In this document: piece by piece, positions 19,516 through 26,092 of the stretch
Numbering within the stretch: position 1 is the stretch's first letter
Layout of the letters: every line of letters begins with the position of its first letter
Origin: Candidatus Bathyarchaeota archaeon
Lineage (GTDB): Archaea; Thermoproteota; Bathyarchaeia; Bathyarchaeales; Bathycorpusculaceae
Direction of reading: 5' to 3'
Length of the DNA: 64,000 nucleotides
Assembly (NCBI GenBank): GCA_963782525.1
Contig: CAWAKC010000010.1
Location: 169,119 to 233,118, forward strand
The notes under the pieces: model-generated
The model's database searches: none
Told to the model about the DNA's origin: nothing
Seen by the model: the letters and a program-made list of their open reading frames with translations, nothing else
Translations under genes and position numbers: made by a program

Positions 19516-20940
19516 ATGCGCAAATTGAATACAAAACAACCCAATGAACCAAATCCACTTGCATCTAAAAACCAGACAACTGAGCAATTAAACCACCAAG
19601 AACTAGCCCAATCAATACTTTCACCGTTTATCCACCTATTCAACATTAATGAAACGACGAAGTGCCTTTTCAACTCTTTAACTCTAAAAAAAGTATACTT
19701 AACCAATGATATGTACGCTAAGCTTTTAACAGATCTAAGTTTGGGAAACCGCAGTAAAGACGTTGAAAGTTTAATCGATCTGAAATTTATAGTGCCTCGA
19801 GGTTTTGATGAGATAAAAGTGTTTGACAGCATTGCAAACAGCGTGCTCAGAAAAAAACCTTCAACCAACCTTGCATACATTTTGGTAACGGACTTTTGCA
19901 ACTTCAGATGCGGTTACTGCTTCATTGAAAACTCTCTAAAAGGGCCAAGCATTTCAATGTCTAAGGATTTGGCAGATAAAGTCATAAACGTTCTGATCAA
20001 CGAAGCAAAACAAGTCCCAGAATACAGAGTCACATTTTATGGAGGAGAACCATTCAGCAACAGCGAAATCGTCTTCCACATCATCGAAAAACTTGAGCAG
20101 GCAGCTAAAGACAAATTCAAATTTTCCTGCGTCACCAACGGAAGTCTAGTAACCGAAGATTTAGCTAAAAAACTCAAACAACACAACGTTACAGTAGGAT
20201 TATCGCTTGACGGATGGGCCAACATCGACAAAAACCGTGTGTTTACCAATGGAAAAGAAACCTTTTACTCAGCACTTAAAGCGTTAACGCTCTTAAAAGA
20301 AGCCGAAGTAAATGTGGGAATATCATGCACAATCACAAAACAGAACTACCAATACGCAGAAGAAGTAGTTGAATTTATCCAAAAATTAGGAATCAGAACC
20401 ATAGGGTTCAATTTGTTAACTAGACTCAAAGAGCCAAGCGAATATGAAGTTCCAGACCCAAAACAACTCGCCCACCACCTCTTTAACGCATACTTAAAAG
20501 CAAACGACTTGCACATGTTTGAAGATCGCATAGGGAATCGGCGAGCAAATTATTTTTTCAAAGAAATATTTCATTTGTACGATTGCCCCGCGTTTGGTCA
20601 ACTAATATTTTTTTCACCAGCTGGAACAGTTGGACCTTGCCACGCGTTCTATCCGTCAGGAAAATATCAAATTCCAATTAAAGATAATTTGAAAGTCCCA
20701 GAAGAACCATTGTTTTACAAATGGTTGGAACTTGGCACCCTAAAGAATAAAGACTGCATGAGGTGTCCTGCCATCGGAATTTGCGGAGGAGGATGCGCAT
20801 ACGATATATACGTTAAAACAGGTCAACTTGGCATCAAAGAAGACTATTTTTGCACCTTTCAAAATGAAATACTCAAGCTCCTTCTATCCTACAATTTCCT
20901 GATGACCCCTCAAAATAAGCGCAGAAAAACGAAAAGTTGA
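19516..20940 (+). CDS. radical SAM/SPASM peptide maturase with probable N-terminal RRE-like domain
   Basis: CNFRCGYC, FYGGEP, TNG, LSLDG; SPASM ligands CPAF...GPC...CMRCPAIGICGGGC...FC; N-terminal LFNSLT...LIDLKFIVP segment. Confidence 0.92.
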   Translation: MRKLNTKQPNEPNPLASKNQTTEQLNHQELAQSILSPFIHLFNINETTKCLFNSLTLKKVYLTNDMYAKLLTDLSLGNRSKDVESLIDLKFIVPRGFDEIKVFDSIANSVLRKKPSTNLAYILVTDFCNFRCGYCFIENSLKGPSISMSKDLADKVINVLINEAKQVPEYRVTFYGGEPFSNSEIVFHIIEKLEQAAKDKFKFSCVTNGSLVTEDLAKKLKQHNVTVGLSLDGWANIDKNRVFTNGKETFYSALKALTLLKEAEVNVGISCTITKQNYQYAEEVVEFIQKLGIRTIGFNLLTRLKEPSEYEVPDPKQLAHHLFNAYLKANDLHMFEDRIGNRRANYFFKEIFHLYDCPAFGQLIFFSPAGTVGPCHAFYPSGKYQIPIKDNLKVPEEPLFYKWLELGTLKNKDCMRCPAIGICGGGCAYDIYVKTGQLGIKEDYFCTFQNEILKLLLSYNFLMTPQNKRRKTKS

Positions 20941-21129
20941 AAACTTTCATCTCCAAACAGCAAGAAACCCGCGACCAAGCTAAATCAAAAAAGCCCGGCA
21001 AACAATTGCCAATCTACCAATGTAATAAATGAAAAAGACATGCACACTTTTGACCTTAACTTTGCGCCAGATTAATTTTTACAATAAATATAAATATTGT
21101 TACTCACTACAACAATGTAGTGATTGTTT

Positions 21130-21567
21130 TTGTCAAAAAATAAATCAAAAGCTAAAGCTCCCTCCAAAAAACCCACTTCTACAATGCTTAATAAAAATCA
21201 AACCCGCGCGGCGCCAAAAAAAATGACCCCAGCCCAAACTAAACGGTTAAAAACAATTTTAGCAAAAATGCCACCTATCGAGAAAATAGATCCTGCAATG
21301 TATGCGAAGCTACAGTCAACGATTCATGATGTAGTAGTTAAAGCGTTGCCTGAATACCAGCAATGGGTGGGCGCAAACCTGGTAGCTGATGACTGTCCGA
21401 CACCCTTGTGTAGCTCATGCGGCAACGATTGCCCAACTCCGTTATGTAGTTCATGTGGAAATGACTGTCCGACGCCAATTAAAGACATTGATGATCTTGT
21501 CAATTCGGCTGTCGAAAAGGCAATGACCGCGGCAATTCGTCAAGCTTTGGAAAAACAATTCAAATAA
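21130..21567 (+). CDS. putative RiPP precursor or modified small protein with internal Cys-rich tandem core
   Basis: K-rich N-terminus, helical leader, core DCPTPLCSSCGN x2 + DCPTP (7 Cys), helical follower. Sits between two radical SAM genes. TTG at 21130 chosen by alignment with 23563 (ORF track start 21124). Confidence 0.8.
   Translation: MSKNKSKAKAPSKKPTSTMLNKNQTRAAPKKMTPAQTKRLKTILAKMPPIEKIDPAMYAKLQSTIHDVVVKALPEYQQWVGANLVADDCPTPLCSSCGNDCPTPLCSSCGNDCPTPIKDIDDLVNSAVEKAMTAAIRQALEKQFK
21391..21477 (+). repeat. 36-bp coding tandem repeat (2.4 units)
   Basis: Units 21391-21426, 21427-21462 and partial 21463-21477. Identical peptide; 10 of 12 codons differ synonymously between units 1 and 2. 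Confidence 0.95.
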
Positions 21568-21869: not shown

Positions 21870-23459
21870 ATGCGTGTAATTCTTTGTATCCCTCCAGTTT
21901 CTTCGTTAGTTCCTTATCCTGCAATTCCATACTTAACAAGTAGTCTGAAGGCAAATAATCAAAAGGTTAGTACTTTTGATCTGAACATTAAGGCTTTTAA
22001 TTCAACTCTTTTTCGCATAGGCGTGGATATTAAGCCCGGAAAAATTTTACGTAACATTAATCCTGGCGTAAGCGCGAAATGGACCAAAGTTCCTGAGGCA
22101 AATATTTACTCGACCATGCGAGAGAGCAAAGAAATTTTCGAAGAAATTATGTCAGAAGAGGCGGCTGATCAATTAGGTTGTCCCCATTCAAACTTAAAGT
22201 CCAGATATACCATAACCACAGAAGTAAAACAGCAAATAATTTCGGATGTTTGGAAAACTTGTAACAATTGGTTATCGGAGCTTGCCAGTGATACCAAAGA
22301 ACAAAGTATTATAGGCTTCCATGTAATTAGTCAAACTGGATTGTTGTGGAGCATACTTCTTTCGCGAAAATTAAAGAAAATTCTTCCCAGGATTTTAACA
22401 GTCTTGGGAGGTCCGGCATTCCTCGCATGGGGCAAAGTTCTCTCTACCCATCCCGAAATTGACATAATAGTTCGAGGGGAAGGCGAGACAACAATCTCTG
22501 AAATAGCAAATTTCTATGACGGAAGCTTAGAATCAATAAAAGGAATCAACGGAATTTCATACCGAAACAGAGAAAATAAAATTATTACCGTTGCGGACCG
22601 CCCATTAATAAAATCTCTTAATGCTTTGCCTTTTCCCAATTATGATGATTTGCCATTAAAAGAATACCCTCAGAACAAGTTCGAGATGCCTATAATTCCA
22701 GTTGTCGGCTCTAGAGGATGCATTGGAAACTGCGTTTTTTGTGTTGAAAAACGCTTATGGGGGAACACCTATCGGATGCGTACACCTGAAAATATCTTAT
22801 CCGAATTCAAAAATATTAAAGAAAAATGTGGGCCTTCTTTTATTCGCTTCAACGACAGTTTAATTAATTGTAATATAAAGTCGCTAGAAACATTCTGCAA
22901 TTTATTGATTAAAGAGAATATCAGAATGCAGTGGATGGGTAATGCTCGAATCCGACCTGAGATGACCGATAAATTGCTTAAAAAAATGCACCAAGCAGGT
23001 TGTGTAGGATTATGGTATGGCATAGAATCTGGGTCTCAAAGAATATTGAATAAAATGAAAAAAGGGTATAATTTGGAAACGGCGAAACAAGTGATCCAAG
23101 ATACTGCAAGAAACTCCATTCGCGTTCTAATATTCATGATAGTGGATTTTCCGGGAGAAACACCACACGATTTTAAACAATCAGTTGACTTCTTACAGCA
23201 GAATCAAGTTAACATTGATCAAGTCAGCATTTCACGTTTCGGGATCTTGCATGATTCAGAAATATCTCTCAACCCACAAAAATATGGACTTAAAGTTACT
23301 GAGAAAAAAGTGGGCGTAAATTACAATTATACATATTCACCTAGACCCATAAGCAATCGATATGAAATCTTAGATTCTGCCTGGAAGCATTTGAGCATGC
23401 TAAAAACGGCGAACCACGTTAGAAGAAATCCTGTAAAAATAATCGTTCCTTATTTCTGA
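21870..23459 (+). CDS. cobalamin-dependent (class B) radical SAM enzyme
   Basis: B12-binding domain (PYLTSSLK, DLNI, VLGGP, RGEGE), SRGCIGNCVFC, GIESGSQRILNKMKK and FPGET. Confidence 0.92.
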   Translation: MRVILCIPPVSSLVPYPAIPYLTSSLKANNQKVSTFDLNIKAFNSTLFRIGVDIKPGKILRNINPGVSAKWTKVPEANIYSTMRESKEIFEEIMSEEAADQLGCPHSNLKSRYTITTEVKQQIISDVWKTCNNWLSELASDTKEQSIIGFHVISQTGLLWSILLSRKLKKILPRILTVLGGPAFLAWGKVLSTHPEIDIIVRGEGETTISEIANFYDGSLESIKGINGISYRNRENKIITVADRPLIKSLNALPFPNYDDLPLKEYPQNKFEMPIIPVVGSRGCIGNCVFCVEKRLWGNTYRMRTPENILSEFKNIKEKCGPSFIRFNDSLINCNIKSLETFCNLLIKENIRMQWMGNARIRPEMTDKLLKKMHQAGCVGLWYGIESGSQRILNKMKKGYNLETAKQVIQDTARNSIRVLIFMIVDFPGETPHDFKQSVDFLQQNQVNIDQVSISRFGILHDSEISLNPQKYGLKVTEKKVGVNYNYTYSPRPISNRYEILDSAWKHLSMLKTANHVRRNPVKIIVPYF

Positions 23460-23562
23460 ACAAGTTTATCGCCAGAGATGCCTTCTGGCTATGTCTTTAG
23501 TTTAGTTCACTAAACCCATAAATATTGTTTTGAGAGATCTTAAAGTAGAGCAGCGATTATTT

Positions 23563-24738
23563 TTGCCAAAAAACAAATCAGCAACTAAACCCCTCTCTAA
23601 AAAACCTGCAAAAACTGGTTCTAAGACAAAAACAAATGCAGCTGTTTCAAAGAAAAGACAAACCAAGAAGCAAAATGAAACCCCACAAACACCTTTAGAC
23701 AAAAATCAACCCTTTGCAAAATTGAACCCAGAAATATATGCGAAGCTTCAATCAACAATAGATGAACTCGTTATAGAAACCGTACCCAAGTACAATGAAT
23801 GGTTAAATTCTGCATTTAGCGAAAAAATTATAGTAGAGGATTCTTCCAAGGACGACCCTGCCTCCATCAAAGTAGGCGGGTCTGGTGCGAAAATTGATCA
23901 GATGGTAGTTACTGCTTTCACTAAAGTTATTAATGAGGCAATTAAGAAAGCTTTGGAAAAAAATGATCATTCGGGAATTATGGAAAAATGGTTCAAAAAG
24001 AAATTTTGTGATGACCTTTCTGACATTCGTCCTGAAAGCAGGAATTATTACAAGTATTGTGTAAATAATTTCGTTACAAATTTTTTTTCTAAAGACCGAA
24101 TATCGGGAAAGAAGATTCTCGACTTTGGATGTGGCCCAGGATACTATTCCGCGATTTTGGCCCAACGTGGATCATACGTAATTGGAATTGACAGAAGTGC
24201 GTTTCTAATTCACAAAGCAAACGAACTCAAACAAAAACTAGGACTTAAAAATGTAGATTTCATTCAAGGAGATTTTCTTGATTTTGCGGCAAATGTGATG
24301 CCTAAGGAGTTTGACTACATCATTGCAGTAGACACGATTGTGAGTTTTGACTATTCAAGACAAAAACATAACCATGAGGAATTTTCCCAAGCATTGAGCA
24401 GAATCAACAGAATTCTGAAAGATCGTGGCAGATTCTTTATTATTGAAGCGCATCCTTTTTTTGGTCAACTTGCTAAAGGAATAAAATTCTCAAGCGAAGG
24501 ACATTTTCACGGTCGTTTACCCAATTATAAAATAGAATATAAAGGTAAAAATAATCCTCACCATTGGTTTACTCTTAACGAAATAACCAGTGCTCTTAGT
24601 GAGAACTGCTTAGCAATTTGTAGGATTTATGAGCCCGATCCAAGCGTTGAATTAAAAAAAGAAAACGCCCAATTATTCAAATTTTTCCTAAAGTATCCCC
24701 ACATGATTGTATACGAAATATGCAAAGTAAGATCCTGA
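23563..24738 (+). CDS. class I SAM methyltransferase fused to a core-less copy of the precursor scaffold
   Basis: ILDFGCGPG, VIGIDRS, FIQGD, FDYII, ILKDRGRF and EAHPF motifs; the first ~133 aa align with the precursor 21130..21567. ORF track start 23530. Confidence 0.9.
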   Translation: MPKNKSATKPLSKKPAKTGSKTKTNAAVSKKRQTKKQNETPQTPLDKNQPFAKLNPEIYAKLQSTIDELVIETVPKYNEWLNSAFSEKIIVEDSSKDDPASIKVGGSGAKIDQMVVTAFTKVINEAIKKALEKNDHSGIMEKWFKKKFCDDLSDIRPESRNYYKYCVNNFVTNFFSKDRISGKKILDFGCGPGYYSAILAQRGSYVIGIDRSAFLIHKANELKQKLGLKNVDFIQGDFLDFAANVMPKEFDYIIAVDTIVSFDYSRQKHNHEEFSQALSRINRILKDRGRFFIIEAHPFFGQLAKGIKFSSEGHFHGRLPNYKIEYKGKNNPHHWFTLNEITSALSENCLAICRIYEPDPSVELKKENAQLFKFFLKYPHMIVYEICKVRS

Positions 24739-24928: not shown

Positions 24929-26092
24929 TTGAAGAGGTGGACTGGGAGCAACATTTTTTTCCAGCTGCTCGTTTTATATATGCGATTGAGTATGTCGGTT
25001 TTCCTTTTTGACCAAGAAACGATAGGTATGATTCGCTACATTCTGGCACTTCGACGTTTTAAGGAGTATTCAGTTGGACCTCAAGGCTTAGATGAGTATC
25101 TTTGTGCCGTATCTTTCAATAGGGTGCTAATCCAGACGGGGCTAAAATTTTCCAAGTTTCAGAAAGATAATCCGGGAGATATCCGAGTGTATGAGGTTAT
25201 CCGTTTCTTAGAGCAGAAAAGCCACATAAATCCTCCAACGGCGCAGAAACTGAGAGAATACGTGGATTTTTATGACTCCCTGATGAATACCAATTGTCAA
25301 ACAGCTCCAATAAAGGCTAATTCTAAAGCTCAGGAAATCTTGCGGTTTCTCTGTATTGAAGCGGGCTTGGACCAAGATGAGGAACTCAAAAATAGGACAT
25401 TCGAGGACATAGCAACTCTTGCAACAAGGCAATCTGCTGCAAACCAGAATTACGAGAAGCTTGTTGAATCTGATTTTGACAATTTTGATAAACTCTACGA
25501 GAAGTGTCCGTCTTTGAAGCTGGAAATAGAAAAAAGATTAACGACCTCATTGCGGGGTGCACAAATATCGGGTTTCACTCCTAATACTGGTGGGATATGG
25601 CTGCCTTTTGTTACGCTTGAAACAAATGATAGTAGAGCACATATTGATAGGGCAAGTGTTGGAGTAATCTTTACGCCTCTTGATGTTAGGATAGGATTGA
25701 ATTTTGGTAGTCAGGCTCACAAGTTTAGGATGAGATATTATGGAATGCTTTTGAATGGGGAATTGATGAATGAGTTGGAGTTTCTTAACCGCAGAGATAC
25801 GGGATACTGTTTCTGTGACACTTTTTGGAATTATCATATAAGGAATTTGCAGTCTCTTCAATGGTGTCTTACTCTTTATGGCAGTACTAAGATTAGTATT
25901 GAAAACGCTATTGAAGAGACTAGACAGCTTGAGGGAACTTTTTTGACGGCAAACAAGTACTTAATTAGTAAAGTGATTAGGAGAAGTCGGGAAGATTTTG
26001 CTTATGTTTTAAACGGACTTGTTGATGAGATTTCTAAGACTTTAAATGAACTTTATCCAACAATAGAGCGTATTAACAAAGCTCAAGCCTGA
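24929..26092 (+). CDS. hypothetical protein
   Basis: 387-aa ORF (true start probably the internal ATG near 25028); no confident family. Confidence 0.6.
   Translation: MKRWTGSNIFFQLLVLYMRLSMSVFLFDQETIGMIRYILALRRFKEYSVGPQGLDEYLCAVSFNRVLIQTGLKFSKFQKDNPGDIRVYEVIRFLEQKSHINPPTAQKLREYVDFYDSLMNTNCQTAPIKANSKAQEILRFLCIEAGLDQDEELKNRTFEDIATLATRQSAANQNYEKLVESDFDNFDKLYEKCPSLKLEIEKRLTTSLRGAQISGFTPNTGGIWLPFVTLETNDSRAHIDRASVGVIFTPLDVRIGLNFGSQAHKFRMRYYGMLLNGELMNELEFLNRRDTGYCFCDTFWNYHIRNLQSLQWCLTLYGSTKISIENAIEETRQLEGTFLTANKYLISKVIRRSREDFAYVLNGLVDEISKTLNELYPTIERINKAQA

Follow-up and report, generated by a model that had tools for sequence, protein, structure and literature searches.

A methyltransferase in a Bathyarchaeia RiPP-like locus carries a core-less copy of the Cys-repeat precursor at its N-terminus

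The DNA stretch analysed here (the window) comprises 64,000 nucleotides of contig CAWAKC010000010.1 (positions 169,119 to 233,118 of the forward strand, assembly GCA_963782525.1) from a Candidatus Bathyarchaeota archaeon, a Bathyarchaeia metagenome-assembled genome (MAG) of 2.87 Mb in 12 contigs with 95.8% completeness. It contains a locus resembling those for peptides made by the ribosome and modified after translation (RiPPs), with four co-oriented genes for a radical S-adenosylmethionine (SAM) enzyme of the SPASM type, a Cys-repeat precursor, a B12-binding radical SAM (rSAM) enzyme, and a methyltransferase (MT). The subject of this study is the N-terminal domain of the MT (N-domain), since sequence comparison confirmed that its residues 12–146 (23563–23967) are a paralogue of the 147-aa precursor. 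The features of the locus are listed in Table 1.

Table 1. Features of the RiPP-like locus; positions are those of the window.
Feature	Position	Strand	Evidence or remark
Peptide maturase of the radical SAM/SPASM type (474 aa), opening the cluster	19516..20940	+	Pfam Radical_SAM, E 8.3e-22
TATA-like box ATAAATATTGTT before the precursor gene	21090..21101	+	Identical 12-mer before the MT gene; putative promoter
Precursor/substrate protein: basic tail, leader helix, 2.5 repeats CPTPLCSSCGND, follower helix	21130..21567	+	Conserved TTG start at 21130
B12-binding radical SAM enzyme, 529 aa	21870..23459	+	Pfam Radical_SAM, E 3.4e-16
TATA-like box ATAAATATTGTT before the MT gene	23518..23529	+	34 nt 5' of TTG; putative promoter
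MT open reading frame, 402 aa	23530..24738	+	Residues 192–308 match class I SAM methyltransferase families
MT residues 12–57: conserved TTG start, Lys-rich tail	23563..23700	+	Homologous to the precursor tail
MT residues 58–100: leader-helix copy (FAKLNPEIYAKLQSTI...PKYNEWLNSAFSEKI)	23701..23829	+	Alignment, consensus, AlphaFold2 helix
MT residues 101–117: Cys-free loop replacing the core repeats	23830..23880	+	Length and sequence variable
MT residues 118–146: follower-helix copy	23881..23967	+	Alignment, AlphaFold2 helix
Class I SAM-dependent methyltransferase domain, from Met151	23980..24738	+	Pfam Methyltransf_31, E 1.3e-22

The BLASTP alignment of the precursor (21124–21564; the longest open reading frame, ORF, starts at 21124 and gives 147 aa, the conserved TTG start being at 21130) with the MT (23530–24735) joins precursor residues 1–144 to MT residues 10–144, with 52 identities in 152 positions (69.3 bits, E 4e-19), and the precursor, searched against all six frames of the 2.87-Mb genome, retrieved the MT N-terminus at E 1.6e-14. 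These searches and the alignments bear out the initial annotation of this DNA, which had described the N-domain as a core-less duplicate of the precursor. Its coordinates are also right, as the TTG at 23563 opens the (S/P)KNKS start common to both proteins and the ALEK motif ends at 23961, and a recount by eye returned the same 15 of 31 and 11 of 23 identities in the leader and follower blocks, respectively. The N-domain keeps the basic tail, the leader helix, and the follower helix, and has a short variable loop in place of the CPxxxCSxCxN(D/Q) repeats. The full repeat is absent from the N-domain in the window, no Cys occurs in MT residues 1–150, and homologous N-domains contain zero to two. 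The consensus of 108 precursors and that of 41 MT N-domains are the same at 56 out of 151 columns, 28 of which are at least 80% conserved in both sets; the agreement lies mainly in EKLDP..YAKLQST....KT.P.Y..W.NS and V..A.N....AL.

The extent of the replaced core differs from that proposed initially. The 30-aa stretch previously taken for the loop is indeed free of Cys, but its first 13 residues, LNSAFSEKIIVED, belong to the leader: they match WLNSAFGERVIAED, located directly before the core in an orphan precursor paralogue on another contig (L005, 10036–10626, minus strand). The orphan leader ends with WLNSAFGERVIAED, and the corresponding MT stretch reads WLNSAFSEKIIVED; the whole leader is thus retained in the MT copy, and the true core replacement is about 17 aa (SSKDDPASIKVGGSGAK). 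The orphan paralogue is a 196-aa protein that has 3.5 repeats (CPVEICSSCGND) and ends in a Lys-rich tail; no rSAM or MT gene lies within approximately 10 kb of it. Its leader shares more identity with the MT N-domain (54–56% over about 95–99 residues, MT residues 8–106) than the in-cluster precursor does (34%). Among homologues, the loop ranges from about 5 to 26 aa and has no invariant position. Cys remnants are seen in it as DDCSNDCPTP in some homologues (the last C-X-X-D unit and the terminal half repeat) and as GNDC only in many others, showing a stepwise decay of the core.

The precursor and MT genes are also alike upstream at the DNA level: ATAAATATTGTT is located 28–34 nt before a TTG preceded by GATT(G/A)TTT, and the duplication takes in both the TATA-like box and the TTG start. 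The same order of TATA-like box, GATTRTTT, and TTG followed by YCAAAAAATAAA is found in loci L033–L054 and in the window at 21090–21132 and 23518–23565, the A/T-rich box lying at the same distance upstream in the orthologues. The TTG start is present in all 15 intact MT orthologues and in 29 out of 30 examined precursor-type genes, with near-identical upstream context, the single exception being a truncated gene call from an internal ATG; where a second precursor gene precedes the MT, its upstream sequence is nearly identical to that of the MT. We infer that ATAAATATTGTT serves as an archaeal TATA box and that the 5' leader is very short. The common upstream sequence points to co-regulation and to an mRNA whose short leader is followed by a TTG start, and the presence of the box and TTG context in both genes is consistent with co-expression.

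The fusion proved to be conserved in homologous clusters of the Bathyarchaeia lineage. In a contig collection with one genome per species, where the nearest related loci come from the soil (MFD) and bog MAG series, 22 loci have a close homologue; the N-domain is present in every one, and all 22 match from query residue 1–10, whereas the next-best contig matches are generic MTs aligned only at about residues 196–307 with at most 37% identity. A search with MT residues 1–150 yielded 12 proteins, each an MT of 367–402 aa. The MT domain alone retrieved 98 proteins: 42 full-length fusions, seven cut proteins still showing the leader motif, 13 close-clade fragments or gene calls beginning within or after the follower helix (some explained by short contigs, internal ATG calls, and frameshifts), and 36 outgroup proteins at 50–64% identity without the N-domain. 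Precursor-like matches were found in 22 out of 120 genomes of the genus. In 13 of these 22, the N-domain match lies inside a frame of 364–410 aa; in a fourteenth, G101, the fused MT was revealed by tblastn only; and in six the match is in shorter frames, the one examined (G029) having a frameshift in the loop. A profile search (398 profile positions including the MT columns; 8123 matches at E up to 0.001) found the precursor-like part, among the best 150 of the 8123 matches, confined to proteins of 78–184 aa and to the MT fusion. The gene order SPASM – precursor – B12 – (second precursor) – MT recurs in seven further loci, one of them without the B12 gene, with SPASM orthologues 77–89% identical in the syntenic loci.

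A single uninterrupted MT frame of 364–380 aa is present in 15 out of the 22 loci and is broken in seven; an intact N-domain frame of 133 codons, in DNA of roughly 37% GC, is kept in 15 species-level genomes. All broken MT frames belong to the MFD series, which we take to be long-read assemblies, and the breaks may be assembly errors; the short-read bog MAGs L037 and L044 are intact. Frame breaks in the MT, B12, or SPASM genes of the MFD series were seen in L045, L048–L051, L053, and L054, and in L025, L028, and L030, and could be either assembly indels or real pseudogenes. In the window, unitigs from short reads (four runs of one study) match 23450–23587, 23585–23735, 23669–23819, 23855–24005, and 24023–24173 exactly, with no differences or indels, 24186–24369 and some other bins being uncovered. 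The concern of the initial annotation that the fusion might be an assembly chimera can thus be set aside, given the intact frame in 15 of the 22 related loci and the exact unitigs across the junction. The unitigs may stem from the assembly's own campaign and then serve as a check of base accuracy, not of independence; the fusion is independently supported because other MAGs carry it.

In a tree of 151 domain sequences (a quick maximum-likelihood search), the 41 MT N-domains fall on one side of a branch with a Shimodaira–Hasegawa-like approximate likelihood ratio test (SH-aLRT) value of 98, which fits a single fusion event and gives no hint that the adjacent precursor repeatedly converted the N-domain. 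The median pairwise ratio of nonsynonymous to synonymous substitution rates (dN/dS) in 16 intact genes is lowest in the MT domain (0.13) and rises from the leader helix (0.22) through the tail (0.38) to the follower helix (0.55), the loop being too gapped for scoring; at the codon level, this shows purifying selection on the N-domain and above all on its leader helix. The copy reaches the last residues of the precursor (...ALEK) and is followed by few linker residues and then by Met151, which is at least 90% conserved in a 76-row alignment and marks the start of the shortest outgroup MTs (251 aa). This is the signature of a stop-loss fusion onto a downstream MT start. Judged from these alignments, the gene is an old conserved fusion, in which the whole precursor gene was joined in frame onto the original start Met of a class I MT.

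The reading frame of the fusion includes Met151 (23980–23982) and Met125 (23902–23904), and a number of gene calls begin at internal Met codons (e.g., P0133, 278 aa). A shorter form of the MT that lacks the N-domain can be envisaged, and the domain may be missed by automatic annotation.

The catalytic part belongs to class I MTs: residues 192–308 match Methyltransf_31 with 80.4 bits (cut-off 27), Methyltransf_25 with 54.9 (27), and Methyltransf_11 with 54.1 (21.2), and DFGCGPGYY is invariant in the alignment of N-region homologues. Its AlphaFold2 (AF2) model has alternating strands and helices in a Rossmann-type fold with pLDDT (predicted local distance difference test) values above 90, and Foldseek found only generic class I MTs at E about 1e-12 (3g5l, CypM 7wzg, ChlM 4qdk), among which CypM is a RiPP N-methyltransferase.

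The outgroup MTs (251–328 aa) lack an extension or bear an unrelated one (about 45 aa; LPDG...VDP.L..R). MTs lacking the domain, which the initial annotation had named, for homologous clusters, as telling against its proposal, are found among the more distant homologues (36 out of the 98 matches, one of them encoded in locus L112), which makes the N-domain a lineage-specific addition and no general catalytic requirement. The sole outgroup locus with context, L112:6760–9894 on a high-GC metagenome contig, encodes a 194-aa ORF featuring a CxC-rich stretch together with eight CAPPVDCA repeats, a 530-aa SPASM rSAM enzyme, and then an MT that is 50–60% identical to the catalytic domain in the window and has an unrelated 45-aa N-extension (LPDG...EP.L..R). 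As this MT lies beside a SPASM gene and a Cys-repeat ORF, the MT type was paired with Cys-repeat substrates before the fusion arose as a Bathyarchaeia add-on. Mimicry of the precursor by the 45-aa extension was considered and rejected, as 1430 out of 2000 shuffles scored as high (for this one outgroup locus).

More distant MTs of 380–410 aa (P0240–P0261; E about 1e-16 to 1e-24 to the profile) have an N-terminal domain of about 150 aa without a Pfam match, which by eye looks like a strand-plus-helix peptide-binding module; for its being a RiPP recognition element (RRE), Pfam gives no support. In another outgroup gene call, P0188 (412 aa), the C-terminal SPASM Cys motif of an rSAM enzyme and the MT are in one frame, either as a natural rSAM–MT fusion or as a run-through call on a short contig.

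In the AF2 model of the MT (built with the 76-row alignment), residues 1–63 are disordered, with pLDDT below 50 in the tail, and helices are predicted at 67–100 and 118–144 with pLDDT of about 72–75; the loop falls below 50 at 100–105 and 110–117. The N-domain is hence modelled as disorder and two long helices. Read from the sequence, both helices have broad hydrophobic/Ala faces (LV..AV..AM..AI..AL), as is usual in helices packing against more than one partner, and would be suited to a bundle of more than two helices. Pfam found no RRE/PqqD family in MT residues 1–150; the matches of the N-region are Sey1_3HB, under its cut-off (15.7 bits vs. 24), and PCMT, also under the cut-off, from residue 136. 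A complex prediction for MT 58–150 and precursor 45–147 gave ipSAE (interaction prediction score from aligned errors) values of 0.01 and 0.02 and, made without controls, counts neither way.

The SPASM maturase scores with several NCBIfam RiPP rSAM/SPASM families, i.e., FibroRumin (179 bits, under the cut-off), PapB (NF047865; 150.5 bits, cut-off 340), SCIFF (TIGR03974; 102.1 bits, cut-off 425), and TIGR04463 (94.3 bits, cut-off 525), and is a member of none of the latter three; its best solved relative is CteB (5wgg, E 4.8e-24). It is related to thioether-forming maturases and lies outside every equivalog cut-off. The extension at its N-terminus (about 120 aa) matches the N-terminal part of RiPP maturase families (models from position 2–18), and the alignment with 8vpo starts at residue 57; Pfam found no PqqD in residues 1–125, and the AF2 model has a mean pLDDT of 50.6, with residues 1–116 below 50. 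The B12-binding rSAM enzyme is probably a C-methyltransferase: it matches Pfam B12-binding (28.9 bits, under the cut-off of 32.1) and NCBIfam ApyD and the TIGR03975 RiPP C-methyltransferase (both under cut-off), and its residues 1–143 gave nothing meaningful in Pfam. The 387-aa ORF immediately following the MT (24929–26092, plus strand) has no Pfam or NCBIfam match, and tblastn was negative in nine related loci; it probably lies outside the cluster.

The core unit of the precursor, C-P-x-x-x-C-S-x-C-x-N-(D/Q), occurs in one to five copies in more than 100 homologues (128 protein clusters) and contains C-X-X-(D/Q); the C-X-X-(Q/D) units of the precursor homologues are CGND, CSNQ, CDNQ, and CANQ, and the substrate gene adjoins the maturase gene. 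For the precursor and the MT N-domain, no solved or Pfam relative was found (the sequence search of the PDB gave nothing under E 0.09), the ESM Atlas search returned no usable match, and Pfam gave no match to Nif11 or NHLP. The literature searched on Bathyarchaeota RiPPs yielded nothing on these precursors, and the Cys-repeat proteins of Bathyarchaeia form a family of over 120 protein clusters (at 90% identity) that has so far gone uncharacterised. The remaining two of the 22 genomes with precursor-like matches have SPASM and precursor genes without a fused MT, G108 (L194:8159–14809) and G115 (L193:2620–10255), variant Bathyarchaeia clusters whose members of the precursor family have other cores (CMECDCDCTNCSSCGSCGSC and CPQPACWSCGTG, respectively); the former also encodes a 122-aa ORF, PqqD-like by eye, followed by a second rSAM enzyme and two small unrelated MTs, while the latter consists only of the SPASM and precursor genes and a divergent B12 rSAM enzyme.

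The closest published parallel in the literature searched is the Crp system of Methanococcus voltae. There, the rSAM/SPASM enzyme CrpC installs ranthionine thioethers on the Cys-rich repeat protein CrpA, which carries C-X-X-(Q/D) motifs; CrpB has the first 47 residues of CrpA, its addition raised the extent of modification, and the authors suggested a chaperone-like role for it (PMC13692751). Both systems are archaeal, with a SPASM rSAM enzyme acting, or presumed to act, on a Cys-rich repeat protein with C-X-X-(Q/D), and neither a protease nor an exporter is described. Similarly, only the maturases, the precursor(s), and the MT are conserved across loci of the type in the window, and a modified small protein, as opposed to a released peptide, may therefore be what is produced. 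The systems differ in that CrpB is not an enzyme and may be just a second substrate, whereas in the window the sharing partner is a tailoring MT; and in that CrpB shares the N-terminus, whereas the MT shares both core flanks with the core deleted. Moreover, the SPASM enzyme of the window is not of TIGR04463, and the cores are unrelated in sequence.

Substrate finding by RiPP and RiPP-like enzymes is a central question, for which the answers so far known are RRE domains, direct binding of the leader, and substrate–enzyme fusion. For the MT, we consider it a serious possibility, somewhat short of an even chance, that the N-domain is a recruitment module. This general function is favoured because selection has preserved, on the enzyme, those parts of the substrate that lie outside the core, because both helices and their order are kept and not just a linear motif, and because the MT has no RRE; as both helices and the hairpin topology are retained while the loop varies, the need seems to be for the fold and not only for a linear leader motif. 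The module would add something besides catalysis, since the catalytic domain works elsewhere without it. By carrying the non-core scaffold of its substrate, the MT would join the assembly in which the precursor is processed.

Among the recruitment variants, we rank first, as a tentative proposal, a homotypic pairing of the MT hairpin with the precursor hairpin that would make recruitment independent of an RRE. The leader and follower helices of the precursor would form an antiparallel hairpin presenting the Cys-repeat loop, and the MT hairpin would pack on it, probably as a four-helix bundle, with the catalytic domain held beside the repeats and the precursor's own leader left free for the rSAM enzymes. 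Such pairing is preferred because it would leave that leader free and explain the retention of the follower. The MT would most likely act on the core, before or after crosslinking, since the core has C-X-X-(D/Q) units of a kind linked to rSAM thioether formation.

Several observations weigh against recruitment by the N-domain. The 36 MT homologues at 50–64% identity lack the domain, and the L112 MT, with an extension unlike the precursor, lies beside a SPASM gene and a Cys-repeat precursor, so the module is not needed for the catalytic domain to reach Cys-repeat substrates. Constraint on the follower helix is weak (dN/dS 0.55). In the G101 lineage, the N-domain (P0168) is altered at several otherwise invariant leader residues and the cognate precursor (P0025) is not, which speaks against tight pairwise co-adaptation. 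The seven consecutive conserved residues YAKLQST look more like an enzyme-read motif than a coiled-coil face. Finally, the first codons (TTG YCA AAA AAT AAA) are kept, and the shared (S/P)KNK start may mirror translation signals and not protein function.

The last but one of these points leads to the best surviving alternative, which we regard as unlikely: the N-domain would be a leader mimic occupying the precursor-leader site(s) on the SPASM and/or B12 rSAM enzyme, with the MT docked on the maturase, either in a complex or for hand-off, or with the finished product displaced. The best-kept part of the N-domain is indeed the most invariant leader block of the precursor, LDP..YAKLQSTI (dN/dS 0.22), with YAKLQST conserved on all faces, as would suit a sequence that an enzyme recognises; the N-terminal extension of the SPASM enzyme resembles RiPP maturase N-terminal regions, and CrpC (TIGR04463) was reported to use an RRE and domain contacts (PMC13692751). 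However, a mimic would compete with the substrate for its site and would have no need of the follower helix, which every aligned homologue nevertheless retains; the SPASM extension shows no PqqD by Pfam and is modelled there with pLDDT below 50. The literature searched on leader mimicry yielded nothing relevant.

The stepwise loss of Cys from the loop (from DDCSNDCPTP to GNDC to no Cys in the window) would also be expected if the N-domain were a relic that once had a real core in cis, as in borosins, and lost it, its helices being now a generic dimerisation or solubility appendage or nearly neutral. The weak constraint on the follower helix and the seven broken MT frames in 22 loci point the same way, but neutrality is at odds with the dN/dS of the leader helix and the tail (0.22 and 0.38 in 16 genes) and with the 133-codon frame intact in 15 species-level genomes, and the broken copies are all from the MFD series, where breaks may be assembly errors. 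We hold this explanation to be improbable.

Alternatively, the fused copy could act as a leader on the MT's own catalytic domain, keeping it active or folded while the substrate leader remains unread, and would then be a natural counterpart of engineered leader–enzyme fusions. A leader appended in cis has been reported to yield a constitutively active tailoring enzyme (PMC13003496), and the N-domain helices are modelled at moderate pLDDT (about 72–75) beside a confident MT domain. Nevertheless, we think such action quite improbable, as the outgroup MTs without the domain make a leader-binding site on the catalytic domain unexpected, and many RiPP MTs are leader-independent (PMC11285071).

It is very improbable that the MT is made only from an internal ATG (Met151 or Met125), the upstream frame being a dead precursor gene and the fusion an artefact of annotation or assembly: Met151 is the ancestral start, where the 251-aa outgroup MTs begin, and some close-clade gene calls do start from internal Met codons (P0133, P0134, P0160), but no stop separates the N-domain from the MT in 15 out of 22 loci, dN/dS is below one throughout, the domain comes with a conserved TATA-like box and a TTG start of its own, and short-read unitigs match 23855–24005 without a difference. 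The alternative named in the initial annotation of the loop as an in-cis substrate, which the MT and/or the rSAM enzymes would modify, can practically be dismissed, since, although one C-S-N-D-C-P-T-P unit is retained in P0135, P0142, and P0145, the loop is decayed, Cys-free in the window, and too variable in length and sequence to be a conserved substrate.

Among fused architectures, engineered leader–enzyme fusions likewise have a copy of the leader covalently attached to a tailoring enzyme (PMC13003496). They are man-made and rely on a known leader-binding site, whereas the fusion in the window is natural and includes the follower, and its MT is not known to have such a site. Examples of engineered fusions involve LctM, LynD, and MdnC. 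The borosin MT fold differs from class I, and the MT of the window has no conserved core in its chain and matches only class I MT families in Pfam and NCBIfam. Borosins of types I–III (e.g., OphMA) likewise combine precursor-derived sequence and a methyltransferase in one chain (PMC11285071). By that account, the fused part of a borosin has a core that is methylated in cis and the product is cut off, whereas the copy in the window has no core; moreover, the borosin MT is N-terminal to the peptide, and the MT of the window is C-terminal to the precursor copy. Recognition by a PqqD-like RRE serves the same task of bringing an enzyme to the precursor; the MT of the window has no RRE, and its N-domain is a two-helix copy of what an RRE would bind. 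The structured leaders of Nif11-like and NHLP precursors are likewise described as long, conserved, helical, and involved in protein–protein contacts (10.64898/2026.10.04.756588; PMC10858898), whereas the precursor in the window has a follower helix, so that helices flank the core, and a copy on the enzyme.

A natural tailoring enzyme with a core-less precursor copy was not found in the literature searched, mostly open-access main texts, including the accessible part of a 2024 review of RiPP methyltransferases, which describes borosins as precursor–MT fusions and several RiPP MTs as leader-independent (PMC11285071). To that extent, the architecture of the tailoring enzyme is new, while leader-guided, RiPP-like modification of a Cys-repeat protein is known. 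If recruitment by the N-domain is correct, it would be a further solution to substrate finding, in which an enzyme bears the scaffold of its substrate without the core, and would provide a design rule for redirecting tailoring enzymes, with the substrate's own flanks grafted on the enzyme. Homotypic pairing would be an RRE-independent principle evolved by duplication of the substrate gene, promoter included, onto the enzyme, and a natural counterpart of engineered leader–enzyme fusions. For genome mining, a terminus of a tailoring enzyme matching a neighbouring small ORF may serve as a signature, and for the Cys-repeat family of Bathyarchaeia the candidate chemistry comprises thioethers, C-methylation, and further methylation.

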